From an uncultured bacterium (lineage in GTDB: Bacteria; Patescibacteriota; Minisyncoccia; Phycocordibacterales; PALSA-1337), in contig OY969557.1 of assembly GCA_963701025.1 (NCBI GenBank), forward strand, positions 640,090-704,089: a stretch of DNA of 64,000 nucleotides, given 5' to 3'. The notes beneath the pieces are model-generated. The model saw nothing but the letters and a program-made list of their open reading frames with translations, ran no database searches and was not told the origin of the DNA. Position 1 is the stretch's first letter; every line of letters begins with the position of its first letter. Positions 2,956 to 48,034 of this stretch are shown here, piece by piece. The translations under genes were made by a program, and so were the position numbers.

Positions 2956-3291
2956 TTATTTAAACTCGTAATAGCGGCGCTTTCTCGTTCCGGCGGCTCT
3001 TGGTGCGGTCACCGCCGCTTCGGCTGACGCCTTCGCACTGGTTATGACCCCCATTTCTTCCAGGAATTTCAGTACGCGGTAAATAGTTGAAATTTTCATT
3101 TCCGGCATTGAAGACATGATGTCTTCGGCGCAGAGCGGTGTACGGCTTTGTCGGAAGAGGTCGAGGATCGCTATCCTAGGCGCGGTTATCTTTAATCCTT
3201 CCCCACGAAGGTGATATTTGCTCGGTATACGTCTCCTCGCATTTTTTCTGTCTTCTTCGCTGATGGGCATGATATTTTTTGGAGTTTTCAA
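2956..3291 (-). CDS. Fur-family transcriptional regulator, N-terminal winged-helix domain only (truncated Fur-like)
   Basis: ITAPRIAILDLF...STIYRVLKFLEEMGVI matches the Fur DNA-binding domain (LPRLKILE...TVYRVL..F...G.I). At 111 aa it is too short to include the metal-binding and dimerisation domain. Confidence 0.5.
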   Translation of the reverse strand: MKTPKNIMPISEEDRKNARRRIPSKYHLRGEGLKITAPRIAILDLFRQSRTPLCAEDIMSSMPEMKISTIYRVLKFLEEMGVITSAKASAEAAVTAPRAAGTRKRRYYEFK

Positions 3292-3470
3292 GTATAGCGG
3301 TTTGGTGGGGGTTGGGGGTGTCTCTTTTACATGCCTTTTTCTAATTGGGAATTAAGGTTATTTTTTCAACGAGAATAAGCCGCATTATTAAAGCAGAAGA
3401 GTCTTAATTCCCATTTAGAGAAACATACCTTTCCGAGTATCCCATGCCCCTCCAGAAAAGGCTCAAACCT

Positions 3471-3546
3471 GGTGCGCGCTCAAGGATTCGAACCTTGGAC
3501 CTGCCCGATGTAAACGGGATGCTCTACCAACTGAGCTAAGCGCGCG
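3471..3546 (-). tRNA. tRNA-Val (anticodon TAC), CCA encoded
   Basis: Reverse complement is GCGCGCT TA GCTC AGTTGGTA GAGC A TCCCG TTTACAT CGGGC AGGTC CAAGG TTCGAAT CCTTG AGCGCGC A CCA. All arms are canonical; there is one 27:43 mismatch. Confidence 0.85.
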
Positions 3547-3586
3547 CGTTTTTGCGCTTGTCCATAGACTAGCGTATATTCAAGGC

Positions 3587-7677: not shown

Positions 7678-8078
7678 TTCAGTTGCGGGTCAAATGGTGG
7701 AAATGGGCCACGAAGTTTGGTTGGTTTGAAGTTCGGCACTTTAGTCAACTAAAGTGGAATAAAAAAGCCCCGCGCGCGAGCGAGAGGTCTCGGAACACAC
7801 CAAGGCTATTCAGAATGGCGCGACACCCACAATATCGGGCCTATTCGGTTTACATGATATTGCCTGTATCCATAGAGGCCGCCGCCGATGATGATCACTG
7901 CCACCAGTATTATGATTGCTTTCATAAACCAAATTTTTTTGTTCTCTCTACCGATTGCTGGCAGAGTCGCCTTTTCAAAGGGCATTGTTTACCGCATGTT
8001 TGCTGTTTAAAAACAGACTAGCATAAAAAGGAGACTTGTCAAGTACCATTCACAAGTATTAGCTGATACAATTCGCTC

Positions 8079-8327
8079 ATGATTCAAGACTTTCTTACAT
8101 CGAACCTCAACAAGGCTGTCTATGAGATGATAGACGGCGATAAGCGGTTTTACGGAGAGATAAAGAGTTTGCGCGGCGTATGGGCTGTCGGTAAAACCCT
8201 TGAAGAATGCCGTCTCAATCTTATGACTGCAATAGAAAGCTGGCTTGTGTTTCGTCTGAAAAGGAATCTGGCGATACCTAATTTCAAAATCCGTGGCAAA
8301 CAACTGCCAGTGAGTAAATATGCCTAG
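8079..8327 (+). CDS. hicB: HicB-family (UPF0150) antitoxin-like protein
   Basis: FYGEIKSLRGVWAVGKTLEECRLNLMTAIESWL matches the HicB N-terminal RNase H-like fold signature (F.A.IPELPGC...G.TLEEA..N..EAI..WL). No C-terminal DNA-binding domain. Confidence 0.6.
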   Translation: MIQDFLTSNLNKAVYEMIDGDKRFYGEIKSLRGVWAVGKTLEECRLNLMTAIESWLVFRLKRNLAIPNFKIRGKQLPVSKYA

Positions 8328-8541
8328 ATTGTACGCAGTTTCTTGGGGAACTTTTGTCAAGAAGATGAGATTTTTGGGTTGGAGCGGTCCAAGTCAGGAA
8401 GGTAGGCATCCAGTGATGGCGAGGGGTGATGTGTCGGTGATAATACCCAACCCTCATCGAAAAGATATCGGTATAGATTTGCTAGTTAGGATATTAAGAC
8501 GGGCGGGAATATCTAGAGGTGAGTGGTTGGGGGGAAAATAG
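8320..8541 (+). CDS. hicA: HicA-family mRNA interferase toxin-like protein
   Basis: KKMRFLGWSGP...GRHPVMARGD.SVIIPNPHRKDIGIDLLVRILRRAGIS follows the HicA dsRBD-like pattern (L...GW.....GSHH.F.HP......VP.H..KDL..G.L..IL.QAGL). Overlaps hicB by 8 nt, so the two are translationally coupled. Confidence 0.55.
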   Translation: MPRLYAVSWGTFVKKMRFLGWSGPSQEGRHPVMARGDVSVIIPNPHRKDIGIDLLVRILRRAGISRGEWLGGK

Positions 8542-10575: not shown

Positions 10576-10646
10576 GCTCCCATAGTTTAATGGATAGAAC
10601 GCGAGCCTCCGAAGTTCGCGGTCCAGGTTCGATTCCTGGTGGGAGC
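10576..10646 (+). tRNA. tRNA-Arg (anticodon CCG), copy 1
   Basis: GCTCCCA TA GTTT AATGGATA GAAC G CGAGC CTCCGAA GTTCG CGGTC CAGG TTCGATT CCTGG TGGGAGC A. Confidence 0.8.
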
Positions 10647-32864: not shown

Positions 32865-34758
32865 TCCCCATTTCGGGTGGTTTCCAAAGATTTTTCCAAA
32901 TGGCCCTTCCGTGGGCCATGATTCGATCCGTCGCATTCCTCTACTTCTTTAGGCCAAGTTCATACTTCCCAACGACCGCAGGCAACTCATCCCAGCGATC
33001 CCAAGCGTCGGCTACTAGGTCTAGCAACTCATGGATTTTTCGTTTGCCATTTTCGGTCGTATCTCCATAAGTTGCGATCATCTTCGCCAATTCTAAAACA
33101 TGGCGACGATAATAAGTAGCCACACAATCCGTCATGTTCTTCAAGCCACGCGGACAACGCCGGATCACTCTGCAACGTCCTAGAAAATTTCTCGTCGTAC
33201 ATACCACATCTCCAAATTGTGAAAGAACTGAACGAACGGAAATGGGTGATCCCCAAATCCTCTATTACATAGTACGCAGGAATTTCCGTTTGTATAGGCG
33301 AAATCTCGAAAGATTTCGGAAATTTCTTTCCCGGTATTCCCCACGACTTCTTATATCATAGCATAAGGTGATCACCATGTATATACCCATTTCGGGTGGT
33401 GCGTAAAGATTTTTTAGAAAGGGTGATCCCTGATATTGAGACTCAGTATCAATAAGAAATAATGTTGACTAAGTTGATAATCTTACTAATGATTAAAGAA
33501 AATTTTCAGGGCCACCTGAAAGATGGATAGACATAGGTGTTCCCTTGTGTTAAAATAAAAGAAGAAAATTTATGGCCCTATATTTTTTATTTTTAAGGAT
33601 TTTGAAATGGCCAAGTCTAAAATTTGTTGCTGGTGTAAAAAGCCTATTATTGATGATAATTTTATTAAAGCGACTCACAATTACCATCTAAAATGCCGAG
33701 AAACTCAACAACGCAGAGCGGCAATGGGCCATAAAAAATGCCCAACAATAAATCGATCGATTCCAGGCGGGGAAGGTAGGAGAGTGCTTCATTCAAATAA
33801 ATCTATTCAATGATCAAGGTAATGGTTGATCGTGAGGCCATTCTTCTGTACATAACGCCGCGATCTTCGACCTGAGTTTTTCGACCATCATTATACGCCC
33901 AGCTTCAGTCAAATTTTTGTACGACGGATCAATTTGCTCGGAGAGTATCACAATTGATGTGGCTAATAGGGTGCCAAGCACATCGCAGATAAATAGTGGC
34001 CCTGTTTTCTTGTCCCCCAAATCGTGCTCTATGAGTGGGAAAATCGCATCGGATAAAGCGATCCTTCTTTTCTCCCAATTCTCTGGGGATATGCTCATTC
34101 CGATTGAATCTCTATTTCGAGCGTGAGTTCATCGAGGAGCAGACCTAATTCCTTCGCAGAAATATCGAGTTCCCGACAAATCGCGGATTTCTTTATCCTT
34201 CCTTTCGCGGTACAAGCGACTCCTGGCTCCATATAGATAAAATCTAGGAGCCGAGAATATTTACCATCGTGGAGCAAATGTAAATACTTAATTAAATCAT
34301 TGTTTATTGTTTGCGAGAGAAAATTAGTGGCCATAACTTAATTTAGTTATAACGACATTTATTTCTTCAATCCCAGAAATCCTTTTTCAATTCCATTACT
34401 TGGGGTTTATCATCGGTAAAATAATCAGGAAGACTAATGTCATAAAACACATCGTCCAATTGACAAAACCAACAAATCTCTCCATCCGTTTGATGTCCGA
34501 TTTCGTCGGTACATCGTTCACAAAATCTAATATTCATTCGTCACCTCATCCATATAATTTAATCTGAATTCCAAAACTTTAATATAAGACAAAACGGAAG
34601 AACACAATTCCATCCATTCATCGTCATCTCGATTACAAGAAATTTTCTTAAAAGCGTCCTCGGATCGCAATCTAAAATCCTCGTTCGCCGCGTCCAACAA
34701 ATCTTTAACCGGAATCAATTCCAATAACTCGTCTACGTGTTTAATTATCTCACTCATT

Positions 34759-36042
34759 TTATTCTCCTAAAAATTGTTTGTAATCTTCGTACCCGTCTTC
34801 TTTCCATATATCTTTGGAGGTATGTACCTCCATTGAAATTCTCATCCCCTCTCTGCCTAATATTTCTCGACTCGCAACCAGCATCTTCTCTTTGATCATT
34901 TCCTTTATTTTATCGATATTCGTTTCGTCACACAAGACATAGATTGCATCATGCAAAGGAAATATTATCTCTATTTTTTCCTTATGGATTAAATTTACCG
35001 CCTTCCGTAACATATCTTGAGCGGTTCCCTGAATTGGAAAATTTTGATAAGTATTAAGTTTTTTATCAGGCCAAAAAGCCCAACCCGATTTCAATAAAAT
35101 ACAATCGCCATTTTCATATTTTTCTTTGAGACGATTCCTGAAATCCCAATAATTAGTATAAAGTTCATGATGACAATTTCTCAATTCCGTAACTTGTTCT
35201 GAATCAATTCCAAGATTAATCGCCGCTTTTTCTACACCCATACCATAACCAACTCCAAGTATAAATGCCTTACTTATTTTTCTTGGAATTTTTAACCCTG
35301 TCTGTTTTGTAAAAGCCTCATACACATCTCCCGTTAAATATGCCTCGATCATATTATCATCTTTTGACATACAAGCAGCAACAAAAAATTCTTGCGTAGA
35401 ATAATCTGCTGAAATAATAGCCTTCCCTGGTTCAGCCCTAATTAACGCTCTTAACCATTTACTTTGGGCTGGAATGAAAGTTTTTGTTGGTGGAGCATTT
35501 CTGGATGTGAGTGTCCCAAATGCATTAAAATAACAACGAATTCTATCGTCTTTCCCTACTGCTTTATCGAATTCTTTTTTAGACGCCGGGCTATAGGCGG
35601 CCATTTCTCTTTTTAGTTTCTTTGTTGTTCTAAAAAGCTCAATTTCCCGTAGATTTTCATAATCTTTTAATACTTTATCTTCTGTTGAATATTTTCCTCC
35701 TTTTGTAAGTGGCCAAGTATCTTGTAAATTCTTACTACAAACAAATTGATTAAATAAGTAATCCTTTTTCTGATACTCTGGTTGGATTCCTAATTCTTTT
35801 TCTACTTTTGTTTGTTTTTTCAATTCATAAAATTTATAAACTTTGTTGCATTCTTCTATTGAATGTCTTGTCACTCTCTCAAAATTATTTGATAGATTCT
35901 GGATTGCTTTTCGATCAATCGGAATTCCTACCGACTCAATCTTCGCTAAATCTACACACCATTGTCCACGATTATGCTGAAATTGTTTTATGTTGCGAGG
36001 ATTTTCTGGACGATATAGGAGTTCTTCGAGAGCATTTGTCAT
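34759..36042 (-). CDS. family A DNA polymerase, polymerase (palm/fingers) domain
   Basis: Motif A ISADYSTQEF (DYSQIELR-like), motif B RKISKAFILGVGYGMG (R...K...F...YG), motif C PLHDAIYV (HDE-like). Confidence 0.8.
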   Translation of the reverse strand: MTNALEELLYRPENPRNIKQFQHNRGQWCVDLAKIESVGIPIDRKAIQNLSNNFERVTRHSIEECNKVYKFYELKKQTKVEKELGIQPEYQKKDYLFNQFVCSKNLQDTWPLTKGGKYSTEDKVLKDYENLREIELFRTTKKLKREMAAYSPASKKEFDKAVGKDDRIRCYFNAFGTLTSRNAPPTKTFIPAQSKWLRALIRAEPGKAIISADYSTQEFFVAACMSKDDNMIEAYLTGDVYEAFTKQTGLKIPRKISKAFILGVGYGMGVEKAAINLGIDSEQVTELRNCHHELYTNYWDFRNRLKEKYENGDCILLKSGWAFWPDKKLNTYQNFPIQGTAQDMLRKAVNLIHKEKIEIIFPLHDAIYVLCDETNIDKIKEMIKEKMLVASREILGREGMRISMEVHTSKDIWKEDGYEDYKQFLGE

Positions 36043-36108
36043 TTCTGATACAAAGCGGGAAGGTAATGAATATCAGACATACAATATTTTATAATGTCTA
36101 CTTGCTCT

Positions 36109-36537
36109 TTATCTGTATATTCTTTTTTTGTCCTGTAATATCAAAGCACGCATCTCGTCTTTTAGGTGGGGATCAGAGTCAACGCCAAGGAACTTCAATT
36201 TTGCATTGATGAGCTTGCATTGCGTTCTACCATAATCTACTTTTATTAATGTATCATCCTCTAATGAAACATATTCAGGTTCATCATATTTGGAATAATA
36301 TTTTTTCTTCCATTTTTCTGTTTTTTTATCTTGATGCCATTGCCAGCCATATTTCCAATCAGTTTCATTCACCAATTGTCTGAATTCAGCGTGAAGGTCA
36401 ATCCATTCATATTTATCTGGGTCAATTCCTAACGAAAGAAAGCATCTGATTTCCGCAATTACTGCATAGCCTACACAGGTTTCTCCCTCTAATGCTTGCA
36501 TTCGTTTTTTGAATGCATCTAGGGATTGATCTAACAA
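36109..36537 (-). CDS. putative N-terminal segment of the family A DNA polymerase (same frame, separated by two stops)
   Basis: 142 aa ORF in the same reading frame as 34759..36042. Separated from it by TAA at 36109-36111 and TGA at 36073-36075, which are 12 codons apart. Confidence 0.35.
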   Translation of the reverse strand: MLDQSLDAFKKRMQALEGETCVGYAVIAEIRCFLSLGIDPDKYEWIDLHAEFRQLVNETDWKYGWQWHQDKKTEKWKKKYYSKYDEPEYVSLEDDTLIKVDYGRTQCKLINAKLKFLGVDSDPHLKDEMRALILQDKKRIYR

Positions 36538-37236
36538 CCAATAATTTTCTATTGGTTGATCTTCAACCTAAGGGAGCAACAAAATACCCTTTGTTGCCGT
36601 TCATTGCTTTGGGTAAATTCAAAGTCGAGGTAAATCATATTGTGAAATTATTATCCTTAATGTTGAGGTTGGATAGTGCCATGATTCGTGAGTAACTTTC
36701 CACTTCCATTTAAATTCTTCACATAATGTTTCAATCTCTATTAAATTCTTCTTCTGTAATATGATAAGGTTCAGTAACAAAATGTTGAACTCCATCTTGG
36801 GTAATGTGACCACAATGATCCATCCATTGACGATTACCACCCCTAAAAAGTTTTTTATATTTACTCTCAAACCATTTAGGAGTTTTATATTTGGTTTGTA
36901 GTTTCTTTTTTCTTTAACGGTTATCGGGCTTTATTGACTTCCTGATTCTCGTATCTTACAAGAAATTTATCCCCCGGTTTCCCACATACTGGTTCCCATT
37001 TACCACCAATATCTTTTTGCTTACCTTCTAAAATTTCTCTAACTTCTTTTGATAATGATTCTATCATTTAATTCTCCAGTGTTTCAAAATTACTTTTTTG
37101 GATTGCTTTTTTACAAATCAAATAAACTCCACCATCACTGTCACATAATTTTTTCTCCTTTAATTTGTCATGGAAATTAGAAATATTTAAGTAGATATTT
37201 TTCATACCCATTGTTCACACACCATTTCATATTTTT

Positions 37237-38110
37237 TTAGATTTTATTAACATCACTGGCTGCTTGCTGCCTGCCATAATTTTCATAACCAATCCATAAT
37301 TCAAAAGTCCCTTTGGCTCTATACCCTTCTTGAATTTCCTCTTTTGTTTCCCATAAAGGATGATCTACCGTCATTGGCACATTATCCTCTTGATTGATAG
37401 ATTGCCATAAATCAAGAAAAGGGAAATCATAAATTTCACGAGTTAAATACTTTGTACTTACCGCCCCAATCATCTCATATTCCCACATTCTGCGTTGCCC
37501 TGTTTGATCTGGGGCAATAACATAAATGTGTTGGTTGCTAGTGAAGAGCAAAAGAGAAAATTTTAGGAATCCTTTGGTATTGTTGCGTGAAAAATACACG
37601 ATTTGCAAATTCTCTACATTGCGTAATATTTTTGAATTGGTTCATTTGGGCACCATTCAAACTTGCTTGCTCTTTGCCACCCGGTTCGCTGATAATCAAA
37701 ACATAATTGGTAGAACCAAAAACAAAAAATTGATCTTTGAACATATCTTCAAAATTCATTTCAGCCGTATAGCCATAGAGTGGCCCTTCTATCTCACATT
37801 TATCGTAATAGTGAGGGCCGCCGCGTGTCAGTAAAGAGGCAATTGTATCTTTGCCAGTTCCTTGCGATCCTTTGAAATTGATAAACATATCATAAAAAGT
37901 TGGCAATTGATAAACAGATTTTTTTGTATTCGTCATCCAATGTTGCAAAATGATTTTATTAATCTCGCTTGGTTCAATGTGAGCCAACTCAAAAAAATTA
38001 TGAGATAAATCATCAAACTTATACTTTTTATTATACTGTAATTTTTCCTGCAATTCGTTGAGTTTTTCAAATTTGTTATCCAAACATACAGCCTCAAACA
38101 TATCCACCAA
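37237..38110 (-). pseudogene. P-loop NTPase, D5/SF3-helicase-like (putative primase-helicase), split between two frames
   Basis: ORF 37538..38110 has Walker A FKGSQGTGKDT and a Walker-B-like YVLIISEPGG. ORF 37237..37608 continues in another frame, overlapping 37538-37608. Confidence 0.45.
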
Positions 38111-38234
38111 ATATCTTCTTTCTTTTGCAAGGGGTAAGCCCGTTGTCCATCAATGATAGGAATGTTGTTATTGTATTCCATAACCCCCTCTTTAAGACGG
38201 ATTATTGCATCTGCCCGATTACAAGGAATATTCC

Positions 38235-38612
38235 CTATCTTGAATTTGCTGTGTTCAAACTAGATATTTTTTTGAGTAATAATTTCTTTGCATAAATCTT
38301 TGTACCTTGCCTCTGTTGTCCAACTAAAAGTAATGTATGGTGTCGTTCATCCTTTTCTTTTAGAAATTTTTTAAGATTCTCTATAAACTGATCAAGGCTG
38401 ATTGCTTGTTCTGAGTGTTTTTGGGAATATTCCAAAAACATTTGAGGTAATTGATCTCTACCTGAGTGGCTATTCGCATTATGATGTAGCCATTTACCCC
38501 CAACAAATTTATACTTCTCTAAAATTTCATCAAATTCATCTTGTTTCATACATCTCCAATAAAAAAAGCCGTTGGTAGTCATTTGTTTTGCGAACAATAG
38601 AACTACTACCAA
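38235..38612 (-). CDS. hypothetical protein (replication module)
   Basis: 125 aa ORF upstream of the D5-like NTPase on the same strand. Likely internal start at MKQDEFDEIL. Confidence 0.3.
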   Translation of the reverse strand: MVVVLLFAKQMTTNGFFYWRCMKQDEFDEILEKYKFVGGKWLHHNANSHSGRDQLPQMFLEYSQKHSEQAISLDQFIENLKKFLKEKDERHHTLLLVGQQRQGTKIYAKKLLLKKISSLNTANSR

Positions 38613-40699
38613 CAGCGATTACGATTTAGTTGTCACGTTGGCAAAACAAAGATTAACATAAATCAAAAGTGGAAGCAAGAGAAATATAGAAAAATAATGA
38701 AAAATATTTTTGAGGTGTACAACTAAAAAGTTATTAACTGAATTTTTAGAGGGTAAAAAAAGGGCCTTTTTTTTGCTTTAACTCTTTATGTGGAAATACT
38801 TTATATCAAAAAATAAGGCAAAAATCCCATTTCTTAGTATATACTTTATGATCTAGGACTACACTAGTTAGTAGTTGATTTGACTCCAAGGTTGGTCTAT
38901 AGAATTCTAAAAAAGGAAGAGCGATATTTGTAATCTGCCCATCTTAACATTTTGACTATAATATAAATTATTCTGCATTTTACCAGAATTTTTTGATATA
39001 ACCTTCGATTATACAAGTTAAGTCAATTTTGACTTCCTAACTTTTTTACTAAGGACTTTTATTTATGGCTAGTTTAGAGTATGAAGCGTTAAATCTCGAA
39101 GAATGCGTGGTGCCAAAGAGGGCTATCCTATAGCAAAAACGAAGATCGACCAGAAATTTATGTTAAATTGCCCCCGAACGGCGGTTATGCGCCGGCAACG
39201 TCTAAAATTTAACCCTAAAGTTCCGAACACCTCGTTCTATGCTTGGACGCGATTGCATTATTTGAGCAGTGGCGATAAGCAATTTGCGGTACATTGCCCT
39301 AAAGACAGACCTGATGCCCGTACAGGAGCATTGGCAGTTGGTGATTGGAGAATCCTGATAATATTACAATAAGTTGTGGCAGGACAGCCTGAAAGTCGAA
39401 GGTAAGGCTCGGGACGATATACAAGGTTTGGCAAGACGATTAAAACCTGATCCAGCGAATATTATTACAACACGAAGGTCATTGAATCCTACGACTAGAA
39501 ACAAGGTAAACTAGAGGTTCCCCAAAACGCTCTGATTTTATCCGTAGGCCTGCAATTGCATAGTAAAATCCAACTTAATATCTCGGGGACGCAGACTCTG
39601 GATTTGAGGGATTTGGAGACATTACTAATTTGGAATCCGGTCGTAATTTCAAGATTATCAAAAGATGGTCAAGGGAAACGGAAAGCAGTTTCCGAATTAC
39701 GATCAGTCTGTTTTCCTCGAACCGTCCCCTTGCGAAGATTGCGTGCCGTACCTCGAAACGCGGCACGATCTTACCACGATTAGAGCTTTGAAATCCGAGG
39801 ACGATCTTGAACTGGCATTAAAACGTCATTTGGGTCTACTCACCGATGATTCGGAATTCGATTTTCTACAAAACTAAAAAATTGGATCAGGTTCTTTCCA
39901 ATTTTAAACCCCTATTGGCTCCTTAGATTGTTTCTATTGAGCCACAGGGTTTATATTATTTTATATTTAAACAATACCATTTATTAGGATTTAATCATGT
40001 CAGAAGAAATTAGTCTCAAGAGTCAATGGGGAGAAACAAATTATACTGTCCATTGCAAATTTATAACTCCATGTTTGGGCACGTCGCCCGAAAACCAAGC
40101 GATCTGGAGGAACTATGTTGCGACCAAGTGGAGCAAAGAACTGAAGAAGGAGGGTCTTTCCGAAGAGGAAATATCCGCAAAACTGGACGCGGAGCAGTTG
40201 GAGGTCGCGGATTACACCGACGATGCCACAGGTAAGACGGTATTCCTCAAGGACGATATAGGATATTATATTAAAGCGTATATGGTTCGCGGGTTCCTAC
40301 GAAATTGGCCGCTACTATGAAGCAATTTGGGGCGATGAACCAACTGAAATCGGTCGTAAGTAAGTATTTGTTTGTGTATGGGGTTGAGGACTCCACAAAA
40401 ATTTATCTCGCTGGAGCAGATGCGAAATTGGAGATTTGTGAACGTCCGTTACGAGCGTCCACACCTCAAGGGGAACGAACCTCAATTTCTCACGGAAGAA
40501 ATCCCTCCAGAGACCAAATTTTCATTTAAAATTAAGACTCTCCACTATCAAATCCCAACGAATACGATTGTTAAGTTGTTGCAATACGGAGAATTAGTAG
40601 GATTAGGGTGTTGGAGAAATTCCGGGAGATGGTAGGTTCGTCGTAACGAAATTGATTAAGGAAGATTAAGTGAATGTGTCCCCATGACACGCAACGTAG

Positions 40700-41123
40700 A
40701 GTCGAATAAAGTTTAGTGTATGAACCGTTTAGTTATGTATACGTAAGGCATGGTAGAGTATTGTACAAGTAAAGTTGCGTGTAGTGAAGGTAAAGTAAGG
40801 TATAGTCTAGTTAAGTAAAGTGGTACTGTTATGCCGAGAAAGATTTGGTAAAGGCACTGTTATGTGATTAGAAGTAATGTGGAGGTATGGTTCTGCATCG
40901 TCATGTTAAGGTCTAGGTATGTAAGGTGGTGTATAGTGAAAGTAAAGTATGGTGTGGAAGTGTATAGTAGTGGGTATGTAAGGTGATGTATACTTAATTT
41001 TGGTGAAGGTAAAGTTAGGTTGAGTGCCGTTCGTCAGGGCATGGTCTGTCATGTAAGGGATTGTAGTATTAGGTTGGGCCAAGCTGGAGTATAGTGAGGT
41101 AATGTGGTGTGAATGGATAATCC
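40700..41123 (+). repeat. C-depleted G+T-rich degenerate repeat tract (GTAAGGTG / GGTAAAGT / GTATAGT units)
   Basis: About 420 nt with about 5% cytosine on the + strand. Built from reiterated GTAAGGT, GTGAAGGTAAAGT, TATGTAAGGTG and GGTATAGT units. Has no ORF and ends at an intrinsic terminator. Confidence 0.6.
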
Positions 41124-41165
41124 CGTAGATTAAAGTTTTATTCCTTAATCTACGGGATTTTTTAT
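41122..41165 (+). terminator. Rho-independent terminator (plus strand)
   Basis: CCCGTAGATTAAAG-loop-CTTAATCTACGGG followed by ATTTTTTATT. Confidence 0.6.
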
Positions 41166-41600
41166 TGTATTTAATTTACGCAAACTTTCCAAAAAATTCA
41201 GCGGCTTTGAGATTAAATTGTTCTGCCTCTTCTTCAGAATCATAGTAGCCGAGAAAATATTGCTTATAGCCACAAGTAATTTTATAAACCATCTTTTATT
41301 GTCTTTATCCCAACTTACTCCTTTGTATTGAGATGATGTAGGCTTACCATTTCTCCAACTATTCTTTATTTTCATTGTGGTGGTTTTCTTGATGATTACA
41401 AATGCTCGAATTTTCTCGTTTATTATCTAAAGCGTTATGATTAATGTGATCAACAGCTTCTTCTTTTTTGCATTCATGATAAATCTAGCCATATAAACTT
41501 TCTTACTTTCCATGTTGGTTACGGCGTAGAGGAATATCCATTCCATTTTAAATACCAATTAAAAGGTAATACTTTTCATATTTTTCATCATCTCAAATAT
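41145..41600 (-). pseudogene. degraded HNH-AP2 homing endonuclease
   Basis: Reverse-complement frames give AVDHINHNALDNKRENS (HNH motif) at about 41430-41480, then in another frame the AP2-like YKGVSWDKDNKRWFIK (ORF 41145..41375). Confidence 0.45.
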
Positions 41601-41699
41601 TGGTTTGTCTTTTGTTGGTATTTCTTTCATAACTATATTATACTATGCTTTTCTAATTGGAATAAGAAGATTTATTGTTGCTCGCTAAATACGAACCGC

Positions 41700-42830
41700 A
41701 CTCATTAATAAATTTATCGATACTCCTTATCTTAATTTTTCTCCTCGACCAGATTCAGTCCCAGAATGGGATCAAGAATTAGAGTGTTTCAGTTGTGCAG
41801 CGAGCAGACAGCGTTTATCAATAATAAAGATTTAGGAATTTCAGTTGTACTTGGGGGTAATGGTAGCGGTAAAGATTTTACCGGGTATTATAAGATGGTA
41901 AAATAATTACTGACGTCACCTCCAGTTGATCTTGCTAAATTTTGGGTAGTTAATGAATCCATGTCGGTGGTAGGAGCCTCTTGGCAGGAACATGGAAGAA
42001 TGTTTTTTCATGATCAATTAATAGAGCATATTGAGTGGTATAAACGGTCAAGTTTATATCCTAAAGCAATTATTTTAAAGCCACACCCAGCGAACGGTAA
42101 TCGATATAAAATAGAGTTTCATCGTATCAGCAATCAGTGGGGGCTTTCGTTGGTGTATCTCACACCGTTGGAATGTGGCTAAAGGAATATGTCAATATGT
42201 TTTTGGTTAAAGAAAGTATGAGAGGTAGAGAAATTTAAAACTCAATTCCTGGGTAAGTATTATAACTTTGACACCAGATTAGCTCAACCCAGAACTTAAG
42301 GAAATTTTAACAATCAACAAGCCCATCCAACTTTTAAGTTTTACCTATAATACAGAAAAGAATACTGCTATTAAAAATTTGGAATGGATTAATTCGATTT
42401 CGATTGATCGTAGAGCATCTCGATTATATGGATTTTTTTCTCACCCAGAAGGAAGAATATTTAAGGAATTCGATTGAAAAAAACATATTATTCCGAGGCG
42501 ATCTTTAAATCTGCCCAAGATCTATTATCTTGGTGTTGACTTTGGATCGACTTCAGCCCACAACACGGCTGCAATTGGGTTGCGGAAGAGAATCCAAAAT
42601 ATATTGTTTATGACGAATCTATGATTAGCCGAGAATTTATCGCAGATAAAAGTTAATCATATTAAAGAAAGAACAGCCAACCTTGAACCGCAAACATTGG
42701 GCATAGGACACTATTCGGGGATTCAGCAGCGAATCAAGAACGAATGGAATTAAGTAAATCGTGTTTTACCCCTGACATCATGGAGAAAAGAACCAGTTGT
42801 GGTAGCAGACACATTGCGTGAGAACTCTAT
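41700..42830 (+). pseudogene. terminase large subunit remnant (ATPase Walker A and nuclease-domain fragments, multiple stops)
   Basis: Fragments across frames include ISVVLGGNGSGKDFTGYYKMVK* (Walker A, about 41850-41920), ORF 41961..42182, YYLGVDFGSTSAHNTAAIGLRKR (about 42520-42590) and ENLSQIKVNHIKERTANLEPQTLGIGHYSGIQQRIKNEWN. TAA, TAG and TGA stops all occur between the pieces. Confidence 0.45.
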
Positions 42831-43330
42831 TCCTTCAAAATAAAATTAGTTCATTATGGATCTTTGATCTAAACATTTCATAAGTTAAATCAAGGTAATA
42901 ACCAATTGAGGGACCACAAATGAGATTAACCGAAAAAGAGAGAACCATGAACTTTGGTGGACAGTCTCTAAGGTGTCTTATATCTCCATAAAATTGAACC
43001 ATAAAATTAATCATAAACAAATCGGGAAACCAATAACATTTCCGAGAGCATTTGGATGGGAGAGATACTATATTAATCTCCAACGTCAAGCAATAATGAT
43101 CATATAACACTAACGTCAAGCAGGAGCCTATGAATACGACAACAAAATGGAAAAGAACTGAGATCGAGAGCTCATCAAGCCGCTCAAAGTCCCGAAGCGG
43201 GGGGAGACGCTTGGAAAGAGCGGCTGTCCAAGCAAGGGACGAAGCCCCCCCACCCCCCGAGAGGAAGGAAAAATAGATTGCTCCGGCCGGGGTGGTAAGG
43301 CCAAAGCCCGTGAAGGTAAATAAAAGTGCA

Positions 43331-43555
43331 CTATTCTGGTCGAGATGGGGGATTTTTATTATATTCGAGTCGTTCTGCAAAGCCCCCCACTTCCATGTTT
43401 TCACCACCGCCAAATACTGCTGTGACAATCCCCGTAATCACCCACCTTTGGTTGGGCAAGGGCGTGGCGGATACACATCCGCCATTTTGCAGTTCTCGCA
43501 TCCCGTGGCCTTCGCAGCAATCACAAAGTTGTGGCATCTTGCTCGGTTTCATCAC
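43331..43555 (-). CDS. small Cys-rich protein (CDCCEGHG)
   Basis: 74 aa ORF preceded by the conserved leader AAACCCAAAGGUGAAGUG-ATG. Confidence 0.45.
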   Translation of the reverse strand: MMKPSKMPQLCDCCEGHGMRELQNGGCVSATPLPNQRWVITGIVTAVFGGGENMEVGGFAERLEYNKNPPSRPE

Positions 43556-43841
43556 TTCACCTTTGGGTTTTGCATTGTGTCATTGTTAGTAGTCCCATCA
43601 CAGGAGAGATTCGCCAGCCAATCGGAGCGGATGCGTCTGACGCCTGCTCCCTTGACATCCGCTCTGGCTTCCGACGCTGTATCAACGGCTTTGCTTCGTC
43701 AAGGCGGCGAAGGGAACCTGGATTCCCCCCGCTTTATCTAATACACATCCCATCGCCACCAACATTTTATACGCATCAGCCGAACGAGCTTGCGAATTTT
43801 TGCACTCGTACATTACATCACCTTTGGGTTTGAGTTCGTAT

Positions 43842-44113
43842 TCAGTCATCGGAGTCCTCCGCCAAATCCCAAGCCGATTGGTATAGGTCGTCGTCGGCGT
43901 GGACTACTTCGCTTGCCCGATAGTTGCCCGCTCGGATGAAGCTCTCCATTTCGCTGGCTGGCATATCATATACGGCTTTCGCCTGTGGATACTCGGCTTC
44001 GCATAGTTCGATCATTGTTGCCAGTGCCGTTTCCTGATCGGCTTCGCTTTCGGGGCCATCGAAAAAATAATCTGTATCAACCAATACGATGTGTTTTTCG
44101 GTTTCGCTTTTCA
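43842..44113 (-). CDS. small acidic protein; start moved to MKSETEKH after conserved RBS
   Basis: GAAAGGUGAAGCG-AUG leader. ORF track 43842..44180 would begin inside the upstream leader. Confidence 0.45.
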
Positions 44114-44130
44114 TCGCTTCACCTTTCTTT

Positions 44131-44370
44131 CTATTTGTTGGTTTTTTGATTTCCGCTCTCGTTTTCCTCTCTGCTTCCACAACCGCCGCCCCCCTTTGGG
44201 CAAGTGTGCATCACATACCACTTTTCGCCGCAACGCTCGCAAGTGGTGTAGTCGCTCGGCTTCAATTCAGGGGGCTTTGTTGATCGTGGCCCAGCACAAT
44301 CATCACACAAAAGCCCCATACCACTTTTACGATACGCTCCCGACGATCCACAATTAGAACAAGTTGCCAT
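44131..44370 (-). CDS. small zinc-ribbon protein (CSNCG...CDDC...CERCG...HTC); start moved to MATCSNCG
   Basis: Promoter TTGCAA, 17 nt, TGGTACAAT and leader GAAACGGAAACGAAACUCAAACCCAAAGGUGAAGCG lie just upstream of ATG (cat at 44368-44370). The upstream part of ORF 44131..44544 translates that promoter and leader. Confidence 0.5.
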   Translation of the reverse strand: MATCSNCGSSGAYRKSGMGLLCDDCAGPRSTKPPELKPSDYTTCERCGEKWYVMHTCPKGGGGCGSREENESGNQKTNK

Positions 44371-45052
44371 CGCTTCACCTTTGGGTTTGAGTTTCGTTTC
44401 CGTTTCATCATTGTACCATAGGGGAACACCCATTGCAAGCGAATTCCGAAAAGATTTCAGAAAAAAATTTCCCCCACCTTTTGAGGGGTGGAAGAGAGCT
44501 TCGGTTGATGCTTGTAAAAGATACTTCAAAGGATCAGCGATCATAGCCTCGTAGCCAAGATAGGTTCGTCACCCGTCTTTCCAACATAACGGGGAACTCA
44601 TTTCTGCCGAATTGGTTGCCCCCTGCTAATCCCACATACCGACTGACCACAAACCGCCCATCCAGATAGCCAACACTAGATTCTCCGCGCTTGCGACATT
44701 TTCGCAGACTTTTTTCGAGGCGATTTCGACCGCGTACCAGCATCGTGCTGTTTCCAGGTCCATCATCTTTGCCTCAATCAAGTCGGCCAAACTAGAAATC
44801 CTTCTACGATCCGAGGACGCTTGCCATAAATTTCACGGCTTGTCATTTTTCGTTCCCTTGTTCGATCGGGTCGGCGAAGTGCCTTCCCACGCTTACATTA
44901 TAGCATAGGGAACACACCTGTCCAGCAAAATCAGGGAAATTCCGAGAAATTTCCAAGAAGATAATCGTGCAAAATGCCCTAGACCTTTGTACCAATGACC
45001 TCTTCTTTCGCCCTGGAAAGGCTAATTTTTTACGATATATAAGGGTCAGGGA

Positions 45053-45986
45053 TTGGGGAAGCGAGATTCGCCTCGGCTTGTAAGTTTTATGCTAAAAAAT
45101 AGTAAACAAAAAAGAATGGAAAATCAACTTATTCGACAGGCGTTGAATAATGGCTGGGATGTTCCGCCAAAGATAAAGAAAAAGGCCGTTAAGATGATGG
45201 AGAAAATCCTCGATGCACCTGACAAATATTCAGGCAAAGTTGTAGTGCAGGCTGCAAATACTCTCGTCAAAATGAATCCACCTACGATTACATCGCATGT
45301 ACAAGTCGATCAGACGAGCGAGGATTTATCAGAAATATCTCGTGATCCAGAAAAATATATGGCTTTGATGCAAGAAAAACTAAAAGAAATAAAGTCATTT
45401 AACTCCGATAATGGTGTAGAGCAAGTGGCTAAAGATGGAACATTTTATGAAGCAATCAGGAAAGCCGAATTTCGAGGGGAAGCCGAATTTCGAGGAGATG
45501 ATCTTGAGCCTGACTCAGAGGGTTGAAGCCCTTGAACGGAGCGTAAATCAGCCCTCCAATCGAGATAGATTATTCAATAAAATAAAAGAAGAGGAGAACG
45601 ATGGAAAACGAGTTCGACGAATTGAAAAGAAAATAAACAAGATGGAGGAGAGATTGAACAAAGTGGACGGGAAGCCGAAGGCTTGTAAGATAAATAAATC
45701 TATTATTGCAAATCCTTCGGATTCCCCGATCCCTCCACGATTGACCTTAGAATCAGTCAGTCATAAAGTGGAAGAAATTGAGAGATTACTCGATACCTCT
45801 CACGATCATATTCACGAGATGACGAAAAATTCGGAATACGAATTACAAAATAAAATAAGTAATCTTCAAGATCGGGTCGATCATGTTTCGTGGCGATGTG
45901 GAGGAAATACTTTTTTTAATTTATTCTTATTGGGTTGTGCAATATTTTGGGTTGTTGAACATTATCATTTATTTGGAGTAAAGTGA
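45053..45986 (+). CDS. coiled-coil protein with C-terminal TM helix; frames switch at an 18-nt tandem duplication
   Basis: ORFs 45053..45526 and 45435..45986 overlap in different frames across the tandem repeat gaagccgaatttcgaggg/gaagccgaatttcgagga (45467-45503). The C-terminal hydrophobic segment is FFNLFLLGCAIFWVV. Confidence 0.4.
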
Positions 45987-48034
45987 TGCCCTGGCATGTT
46001 CGTAAAAAAGGAAATAAATATCAAATTGTAAAAACCAGCACTGGTAAAGTGGTGGGCACTTCGGATTCAAAAGCGAAAGCAGAGGCATCAATCAGAGCGA
46101 GGGAAGCGGGGGAAGCCAACGGCTTGTGAGATAAATAAACCTATTTTTGTAAATCCTTCGGATTTCGGCGGGAGCAAATGAAAAATAAATGGATAATCGA
46201 AAAATTAAAGCCGACCGAAGATATGATATGGGCGACTGAATATTGGAAAAGATGCAATATTATTGCTCATAATGTGCGGATGGGAACAGCAACAATAACG
46301 GTAAATAATAGTGGGGTAACAATCTCGATAAATAATAACGGAATTCGACTAAAAAGAAAATAATGATAGTACAAGTATTCAACTCTGTAAGCGGGAAGTG
46401 GGAGGAACAGATAAGGTTCCAAGGGCGATCGGTTTTGTCGCATTTCGACCCGAATCCTGAGCCGATGTCGAGTGATGTGAGGATGCCCGATTTGATGGTG
46501 GGAGAACATAAAGTTGTATATGATCCGAAACTTGATCGGTAAATCCGAAGGAAATAGCAGGGGTTTGATATAACCTCCATTGAAGGTCTACATTTCTTCC
46601 TAAGAACTATGAAAAGAAATGATTAATATAAAGGAAAAGCATACAGCAACTTGGAAATGGAAATGGAACTGCAACCGTATAATCCGCAAGAGCCTGGAAG
46701 TTTATTTTTTTGTCCCTCATGCCTTTGGTAATAAATGGCATCAATACATTAAAAATAAAGGAATAACTCAATGTAATGGAATATTGTGGAATGATTGGCG
46801 TGATTTTTTGAAAACAGACAATTGTGTAAATGAACAAAATATGGAAGATTATTTGCTTAAAATTTATGGAGAGGCGTTGTGATTATACTTTAAGTGACTA
46901 TAAGGAACTCAATGACCATCGATAAAAATATACTTTATGTTTTGGCTGGAATCTTAGCTCTTGTTCTCGGCTGGAAATTCTATTTGGAGCCTGAAATTGA
47001 AGCCAATATTTTAGATAAAATAAGTCAAAGACAGGAACTTTATACGCCATACAAGCCAAAACCTCATTGGCGAGATAATGACCTTGATAATATGAGTCAA
47101 GATGAAGATGGTGCGAATGATGCAGTCGATCCAAACATAAAGAAAAAAGTAATACCTTCTCCAAGATTTCAGCAAGCCCCTTTTCAAAACGGTCAAAATT
47201 GTCCGAATTGCCGTCCGAACTCGCCGTATTAAGGAAGATATGTACAGAATTGTATTAAAATCTGGAGTTAAAATAGAAGTTGATTCAGTGGACGAGTTGA
47301 AATCGCTTGTCAATCTTCTTGATAATCAAAAAGAAAATCATAATGTTCCGCCAGCAATTGAAGAGGCTATGCGTAGGGACTTGCAAGATAATTTCGGGGA
47401 TCGGCTTGCAAGTCCCACCGAACAAGCATTAACTAAAAATGGTTCAAGAATTCCTCAAGGCGATATGTTAAGAAAAATCTTTCAAGATAAGAATGGGGAT
47501 CGAAGTGGGTAAGTAATCGGAAAGGCAAATCCGAAGGATTTCCGACTCACATATTCTTTAATACCCAATCATAATGTTCAGGGGCGAATTTTCTCAACCA
47601 ATGGGTAAACCAGATTCCATTTCTATGGGCTGAATAACGACCGAATACATGGCAAGAAGGGCATAGGCTAATTCCGTTAATCAACAATAAACTGAATTCT
47701 TTATATTGTTTTTTATCAAGAGATGATGAGCATTCAGGTGCGTTGTCTTCCCGCATACGAGACACTTCCCATCTCGCTCTCGGATTGCTTTAGACCATTC
47801 TCTAAGGGTCATCAACAATCCTTTCTTTTATTTTACCTGTGGCCCAATAGTTCGGGAGCATTTCCCTCAATTCTTTTTCTAATCTTTCTGAATTCGCAAT
47901 ACGATTCCCATGTATATCAATAAAATATCCTTCCCCAGTGGTCAATGAACTTCTCCAACTAACTTGCCGTCTTCAAATTGATATATTTTATCGAATTGTC
48001 TAACATAACTGATAATATCTTTCATTATATTCCT

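Follow-up and report, generated by a model that had tools for sequence, protein, structure and literature searches.

The closest described counterparts of the locus analysed here are the systems called Viral Interference Programmable Repeat (VIPR), which are phage-borne, CRISPR-related and silence genes by RNA-guided DNA recognition (bioRxiv 10.64898/2026.04.26.720920 and 10.64898/2026.04.26.720927); all functional knowledge of them comes from type II systems and from these two preprints. They are composed of a minimal RAMP protein, Vipr, and of guide RNAs (vrRNAs) whose arrays flank the vipr gene, mostly in phages and prophages (10.64898/2026.04.26.720920). Each vrRNA contains 9-16 YNNGG repeats, with a conserved GGY and a hypervariable NN, followed by an invariant, structured 3' tail, in units of about 100 nt; the published search criterion is at least 4 YNNGG units, and NNNGG, YNNNG and NNNNG are recognised as alternative consensus types (10.64898/2026.04.26.720920). 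The arrays that flank gp039, the vipr gene of the reference Escherichia phage SUSP1, were shown by experiment to be expressed as small RNAs that are bound by Vipr (10.64898/2026.04.26.720920). In the available structures one Vipr protomer sits on each repeat: H17 and D177 read G1, R138 and W178 read G2, and Y3 is read by a pocket of which R179 is part, while the NN bases pair with the target DNA, one base being skipped per repeat, and target recognition includes a protein-built RNA-DNA triplex (10.64898/2026.04.26.720927). Real VIPR guides show an NN match of at least 80% to foreign DNA and none to their own contig, and a vap accessory gene is typical of VIPR operons, albeit not universal, some vap proteins having HNH domains (10.64898/2026.04.26.720920).

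The window, i.e. the whole 64-kb stretch of DNA that was analysed, has a cellular left part of 27 kb (TypA/BipA, six tRNAs, Fic and an epimerase), in which two of the tRNA genes are copies of tRNA-Arg(CCG), at 10576 and 10759. Near 27 kb the GC content drops sharply, from 45-61% to 31-41%, a break that could be either a prophage junction or the trace of a chimeric assembly. The right part looks like a prophage: its minus strand has PolA and a primase/helicase-like gene, and plus-strand genes follow from about 39.0 kb, the order onward being the tract under study, a convergent HNH/AP2 remnant, a large terminase and a Mu-type portal. Between the divergent replication (minus) and vipr/packaging (plus) modules lies an AT-rich (~31% GC) non-coding gap at 38620-39066. 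The features of the locus are as follows.

39997..40669, plus strand: putative vipr gene, for a single-RRM RAMP protein of ~224 aa; several 1-2-nt indels break the frame; G-loop GLGCWR
40696..41110, plus strand: putative vrRNA array ('YNNNG' type) of ~70 degenerate pentamers; G-T (G2-Y3) invariant, the other three positions variable and poor in C
40805-40826, 40911-40932, 40968-40989 and 41089-41110, plus strand: four copies of a 22-nt semi-conserved block (repeat family D2, 77-100% identity)
41112..41166, plus strand: intrinsic terminator (inverted repeat I1) with a 15-bp stem, an 11-nt loop and U6; the T-run is on the plus strand only
41176..41558 (41145-41560), minus strand: frameshifted remnant of an HNH/AP2-type homing endonuclease, convergent, between the array with its terminator and terL
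41766..43040, plus strand: large terminase gene (terL), fragmented by indels, with a Walker-A-like 'VVLGGNGSGKD'

The HNH/AP2 remnant was recognised by a match to the phrog_99 HNH endonuclease family (E 4e-4) at 41176-41292 and by an AP2-like 'YKGVSWDKDNKRW' in 41145-41375; it is encoded on the other strand and probably does not belong to the VIPR system. Identification of terL draws on its counterpart in a related contig, L001, which matches the large-subunit families phrog_5653 (E 5e-11) and phrog_10250 (E 3e-9). Further on, between terL and the portal (43000-45000), the GC content is ~50%, compared with ~35-39% nearby, with overlapping low-quality ORFs on both strands; no Rfam match was found there at the gathering threshold.

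L001, a 46-kb metagenome contig, is 94-99% identical to the window and was the only contig returned by the first protein search, which makes it too close to gauge conservation. In both the window (33000-46000) and L001, nearly every gene, including the PolA region, vipr and terL, is split by 1-2-nt indels. Because these indels differ between the two contigs and often fall at homopolymers, the frameshifts point to the noise of an error-prone long-read assembly rather than to pseudogenes. Comparison of the two sequences identified substitutions at 2 of 122 GT anchor positions and at 20 of 310 other positions (Fisher P = 0.05, from a single relative and with both sequences noisy). Similarity searches with the 5-kb region against phage genomes, with the neighbouring ORF against viral contigs and with an exact 23-mer of the tract gave nothing.

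The preliminary description of this DNA had portrayed the tract as G+T-rich and depleted of cytosine (about 5%), and this is real: nucleotides 40700-41121 comprise 28.7% A, 6.9% C, 32.0% G and 32.5% T, against 21.7% C in the whole window, and no other 400-nt windows of the 64 kb are as low in C as those over the tract. The repeat words which that description quoted are indeed the commonest k-mers (GTAAAGT, GTATAGT, GGTAAAG and GTAAGGT), yet the true unit is a 5-nt GTNNN register and not one of 8-13 nt. When the sequence is split before each G-T, it yields ~70 units, mostly of 5 nt (GTAAA, GTAAG, GTATA, GTGAAG etc.), with a mean period of 5.25. Autocorrelation peaks at lags 5, 10, 15/16, 21, 26, 31 and 36 (z 4-7 against shuffles), and Fourier power near period 5.2 reaches its maximum over the tract (6.4, where the median of 400-nt windows across the 64 kb is 1.2 and their 99th percentile 3.2). 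The tract is an array of ~70 degenerate GTNNN pentamers in which only the G-T recurs. Tandem Repeats Finder, the kind of check that had been suggested, returned almost nothing (one 2 x 10-nt match), and exact or near-exact repeat finding left the tract nearly blank; its signal is visible as phase alone.

With a GT(+5)GT detector, which requires 7 or more GT...GT(+5) pairs in 100 nt, the array proper was delimited to 40696-41110 on the plus strand (7% C), and neither strand of the window has another of its kind. Its six runs of at least 4 YNNNG units, the longest of 6 units, all lie within 40744-41109 and none occurs elsewhere in the window, while runs of at least 4 YNNGG units are absent from both strands of the window; a G directly precedes the G-T in just 19% of the units. 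That the tract has no ORF is true only insofar as no frame is open beyond 40 aa (plus strand) or 58 aa (minus strand). The fold of the entire tract is no more stable than that of shuffled sequence (z -1.3), and the internal hairpins at its C-containing interruptions are indistinguishable from shuffles (z ~0). The strong hairpin with a T-run that had been noticed at its end was confirmed at 41112-41166 (-24 kcal/mol; z -5.37; none of 200 shuffles folds as stably), followed by U6. At the gathering threshold and at E<=1, Rfam gave sub-threshold matches on this hairpin only, with no hammerhead and no matching family.

Within the array, the four copies of the 22-nt block are spaced by 106, 57 and 121 nt; they may be the ends of vrRNA units or constant segments, and the array probably holds 3-4 guide units. 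We detected no invariant structured 3' tail inside the tract, the terminal hairpin alone being significant, and the final vrRNA may take this terminator hairpin as its 3' cap. It is further possible that a single long guide, tail-less and C-free, is made from the array, or else a set of guides that overlap.

Immediately upstream, on the same strand, the ORF at 39997-40669 ends, once its frame is repaired, with a stop codon 27 nt before the start of the array. This ORF needed frameshift repair before it could be scored. Against a non-circular HMM built from 19 members, including SUSP1 and leaving out the window and L001, the repaired protein scored 43.6 bits (E 2e-11), the alignment running through the G-loop. 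Judged by this purpose-built HMM and by weak BLAST matches, the window protein appears to belong to the Vipr family; it fell below the cut-off for phrog_4652 (E<=0.01). SUSP1 gp039 itself matched the family HMM with 69.4 bits (E 3e-23), and our detector placed an array upstream of gp039 and another, of three units, downstream, in agreement with the published vrRNA positions. In databases the family is practically anonymous: four members match phrog_4652, a family with no known function, none matches Pfam, and all 487 relatives retrieved from a 5.8-billion-protein database are called hypothetical (487/487), without a Pfam domain. For the window protein and its plus-strand neighbours, Pfam and PHROGs likewise offered no function, and the neighbouring plus-strand ORFs matched no family.

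The association between such arrays and this gene family was approached from both directions. From the DNA side, viral contigs were scanned, protein information being unused, for seven G-T dinucleotides that follow one another at exact 5-nt steps and enclose no C; written as GTDDD x6, this pattern skips the window array itself, in which one unit contains a C. The scan retrieved 120 viral loci, many of them simple microsatellites, and a subset consisting of long, degenerate, C-poor (G)GTNN arrays that are intergenic and lie on the coding strand of the flanking genes. Beside several of these arrays, the ORFs proved similar to one another and to the window ORF (39997-40640). An HMM made from five array-adjacent proteins then found the family (phrog_4652) in 18 of the 120 loci, directly beside the array. 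In 15 of these 18 the array is on the strand of the gene, typically starting 5-50 nt past its stop codon, and a second short array is often present just upstream of the gene. From the protein side, all four phages that were identified by tblastn alone (ODay, UmaThurman, Donkeykong and Cy-LDV1) have GGY-NN arrays abutting the gene. The search of related phages that the preliminary description had advised thus recovered the same kind of array beside vipr in many genomes. The pair of gene and array occupies diverse positions: between tail genes in Gordonia phage ODay, beside DNA ligase and polymerase in SUSP1, and, for mycobacteriophages and Cy-LDV1, adjoining the immunity region (for UmaThurman, Donkeykong and Cy-LDV1, the immunity or early region).

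The remaining 3 of the 18 loci have A/C-only pentamers (NCACN or NACAN) at the same positions. On the vipr coding strand, these A/C-only arrays with NCACN/NACAN cores extend over 11457-12995 in L054, 1111-1581 in L073 and ~4620-5280 in L062 (reverse strand), where they are interspersed with GC-rich hairpins. The corresponding Vipr G-loops are changed exactly at the G-reading residues (Q-Y or S-G for D-W). These three arrays are either transcribed antisense to vipr or built on a repeat core (CAC, ACA) that is absent from the VIPR preprints. Other loci of the collection show the following peculiarities: (i) in L051 (2218-3394), where the array is very long, ~11 blocks of ~15 GGTNN units each close with a conserved 'GGTAAGGAATGGTTTAATGAATTTAATT', (ii) in L029 (4588-5349), likewise with a very long array, each of six blocks is followed by an AT-rich 'TTGCAATTATTTATAA' spacer of promoter-like appearance, and (iii) in UmaThurman (L124, 3128-3451) and Donkeykong (L125, 1489-2387), the GenBank 'hypothetical protein' CDSs gp40 and gp47/gp48, respectively, lie over GGY-NN arrays beside the Vipr-like gene, and are probably mis-called protein genes.

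Compilation of these data, namely the uniqueness of the array in the window, the linkage observed from both DNA and protein, the homology to Vipr and the terminator, therefore leads us to read the tract as a guide-RNA (vrRNA) array of a VIPR system on a prophage-like element, a reading to which we give a probability of about 85%. The proposal of a transcribed GU-rich non-coding RNA thus seems to have been right in kind, inasmuch as a vrRNA-like array follows the gene on the same strand. Judged from its sequence, the array misses the canonical YNNGG and conforms to the catalogued YNNNG alternative, and would accordingly add a new, non-canonical member to a kind that was first described in 2026. 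The plus-strand terminator, the otherwise unstructured tract and the lack of a self-target with an NN match of at least 80% (the best self matches being 68-73%, for 14- and 11-unit guides) all agree with the published description of VIPR.

Set against SUSP1, the window locus shares (i) a small (~20 kDa), single-RRM RAMP gene with a C-terminal G-loop, (ii) an intergenic, same-strand pentamer array directly downstream, ending in a hairpin and a T-run, and (iii) a setting in a phage or prophage DNA-metabolism module, with PolA and an HNH gene near, no self-target at the 80% NN level and a family that is unannotated. In contrast, its repeats keep only G-Y (TNNNG) where those of SUSP1 keep GGY; its G-loop has Cys where SUSP1 has the G1-reading Asp177; and it shows no recognisable tail between units, no upstream vrRNA and no vap1 homologue. 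The variable positions also differ, with 5-8% C in the window pentamers, compared with 16-21% at the N positions of SUSP1 and ~18-20% in the surrounding prophage, and the targeting rule for the repeat type of the window is unpublished. The C depletion at the three variable positions exceeds what the conserved core demands.

As to targets, an exact 10-unit (20-base) NNx pattern gave 0 matches in IMG/VR, and approximate matching in the local loci gave nothing above shuffled controls; the exact pattern follows the published NNx rule, the rule for YNNNG arrays being unpublished. For accessory genes, a six-frame translation of the window was compared with SUSP1 vap1 and with the phrog_15946 family, and contained no homologue of either. 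The latter family, unannotated and characterised by a motif 'PLHxxFEW(N/D)D...QAR', adjoins vipr and arrays in L035 (7615-8139), L075 (reverse strand, 7837-8337), L125 (Donkeykong, 3115-3570), L064, L073 and L062, and is a candidate accessory (vap) gene.

We then compared the G-loops of 24 Vipr proteins, aligned to SUSP1, with the adjoining arrays. Where position 177 is Asp or Glu, the repeats are canonical GG-Y in all 13 loci (13/13), whereas with a non-acidic residue they are GG-Y in only 3 of 11 (Fisher P = 2e-4, with kinship among the proteins ignored). In the window the G-loop reads Cys-Trp-Arg and the repeats conserve G-T only, which would be accounted for if Trp-Arg (G2, Y3) is kept and Cys replaces the G1-reading Asp. 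The same G-T-only behaviour is seen in L035 (Ile at 177), whose Vipr is intact, and in L096 (Ser at 177). Taken with these two loci, the covariation between G-loop and repeat speaks for a variant that works and against one that has decayed, as far as sequence comparison can tell. A tentative extension is that the window locus, L035 and L096 form a functionally distinct VIPR variant, in which the reader of the first G is lost and only G-Y is sequestered; we regard this as possible, with the odds rather against it. If it were true, three bases per pentamer would be programmable instead of two, and the pairing code would differ from the published 2+1.

The chief rival is that the locus descends from a VIPR system that is decaying or no longer active, erosion accounting for both the frameshifts and the missing first G. 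The vipr frame is indeed broken at several points and the repeat consensus is weaker than the canonical one; internal tails, a vap gene (vap1 or phrog_15946) and a target were not found. Random decay would, however, erase the phase, which is held at 5 nt over ~415 nt with z up to 7, and the indels affect every gene of both noisy contigs, at differing places and at homopolymers. Moreover, L035 combines an intact Vipr and a non-acidic residue at the same position with the same G-T-only repeats, so that it has the appearance of a functional variant class, and YNNNG arrays are a recognised alternative (10.64898/2026.04.26.720920). Erosion is thus an unlikely explanation of the locus.

Less probable still is a role at the DNA level, as an iteron-like origin or a terminase pac/cos region in which the 5.25-bp phase would position a DNA-binding protein upstream of terL. 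This would suit a mean period of 5.25 bp, equal to half of 10.5 bp (half a helical turn), the place of the tract between the replication module and terL, and the three related loci with the GT-rich strand opposite the gene, which a pure RNA model does not simply predict. Yet arrays track vipr, and not terminase or replication genes, into differing genome positions (ODay, UmaThurman, Donkeykong and Cy-LDV1); those of SUSP1 are, by experiment, small RNAs bound by Vipr; array and gene are co-oriented in 15 of the 18 loci; and a plus-strand terminator caps the tract. The skew analysis that had been put forward as a check speaks the same way: the cumulative GC-skew minimum is 2 kb off, at 38-39 kb, where gene orientation switches and with which the gap at 38620-39066 coincides, and that gap is a more plausible site for divergent promoters or an origin than the tract is. 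The suggestion of an iteron-like origin or packaging site thus finds no support.

A different RNA role can be imagined in two forms, neither of which we hold to be at all probable. The first is a sponge of the kind bound by TRAP (NAG plus 2-3 nt), and NAG triplets at 5-nt spacing do occur in 40780-40825; no TRAP-like gene is linked to the tract. The second is a Rho-loading (rut) site in the C-rich, G-poor antisense RNA, blocking read-through from the HNH gene, and this RNA does contain 32% C and 7% G, with a hairpin that is a weak terminator in that direction; elsewhere, though, arrays usually lie between co-directional genes with nothing convergent, and a rut effect could be a by-product. Both forms leave the tight two-way linkage with the RAMP gene unexplained. 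That the tract is an intrinsic G-quadruplex or triplex, in DNA or RNA, as its G+T richness and strand asymmetry had suggested, is scarcely tenable, as it lacks any (G3+N1-7)x4 motif and contains just four GGG runs, all isolated, and a single two-tetrad motif, as its conserved feature is G-T and not G-runs, and as the published VIPR triplex is unrelated to an intrinsic DNA triplex.

Five further candidates were dropped in view of the two-way RAMP linkage: a site for wrapping by a small terminase in 10.5-bp phase, end repeats like those of T7, an origin that works through an R-loop, ribosome pads made of repeated Shine-Dalgarno-like motifs, and a Pro/Tyr/Thr-rich repeat protein encoded on the minus strand.

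Beyond VIPR, three known systems invite comparison. The backbone of Class 1 CRISPR-Cas (Cas7/Csm3/Cmr4 with crRNA) has a 6-nt period with one base flipped, whereas VIPR has a 5-nt period in which three bases are sequestered, carries its guide information non-contiguously and is phage-encoded. CRISPR repeats and spacers, cas1/cas2 and a second RRM are all lacking in the window; no CRISPR-type direct repeats were found in or around the tract, and the sole RAMP-like gene is the putative vipr. In the Bacillus trp leader, 9-11 (G/U)AG triplets separated by 2-3-nt spacers, over ~55 nt, are bound by the 11-mer ring of TRAP and bring about attenuation. The likeness lies in a ~5-nt periodic, unstructured RNA and an oligomeric protein with one subunit per repeat; the window array differs in its length of ~415 nt, its linkage to a RAMP gene and its invariant core, which is G-T and not NAG. 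Finally, the T7 genome ends contain short arrays of heptamers (CCTAAAG-like), irregularly spaced, that adjoin the terminal repeats. These resemble the tract as strand-asymmetric, degenerate, TAAAG-containing short repeats near packaging functions; they are not known to be linked to a RAMP gene, whereas arrays of the window type are tied to vipr in many unrelated genomes.

Under the VIPR reading, the anatomy of the locus suggests that vipr (39997-40669) and the array (40696-41110) would be co-transcribed on the plus strand, transcription stopping at 41112-41166. By analogy with the SUSP1 preprints, Vipr, a minimal Cas7-like RAMP protein, would polymerise along the RNA so as to place one protomer on every pentamer; each would grip the conserved bases and expose the variable ones, which would pair with double-stranded target DNA in a gapped manner, one target base being skipped per repeat; the outcome would be gene silencing in competing phages or satellites. 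In the window protein, Trp-Arg would hold G2 and Y3 and Cys would stand in place of the G1-reading Asp, leaving only G-T conserved. The extreme C depletion may plausibly serve to prevent G-C self-pairing within a G-rich guide.

VIPR is a newly described mode of RNA-guided DNA recognition, proposed to be older than CRISPR, of which both the protein and the RNA are unannotated in public databases. Arrays of this kind can be recognised from raw sequence by their 5-nt phase, their strand asymmetry and a neighbouring G-loop gene. The window would provide a natural case of the little-characterised YNNNG class, with Asp replaced by Cys in the G-loop, and with it a testable prediction on how the protein sets the repeat code; decoding the YNNNG rule would give more room for the design of a programmable DNA binder of very small size.
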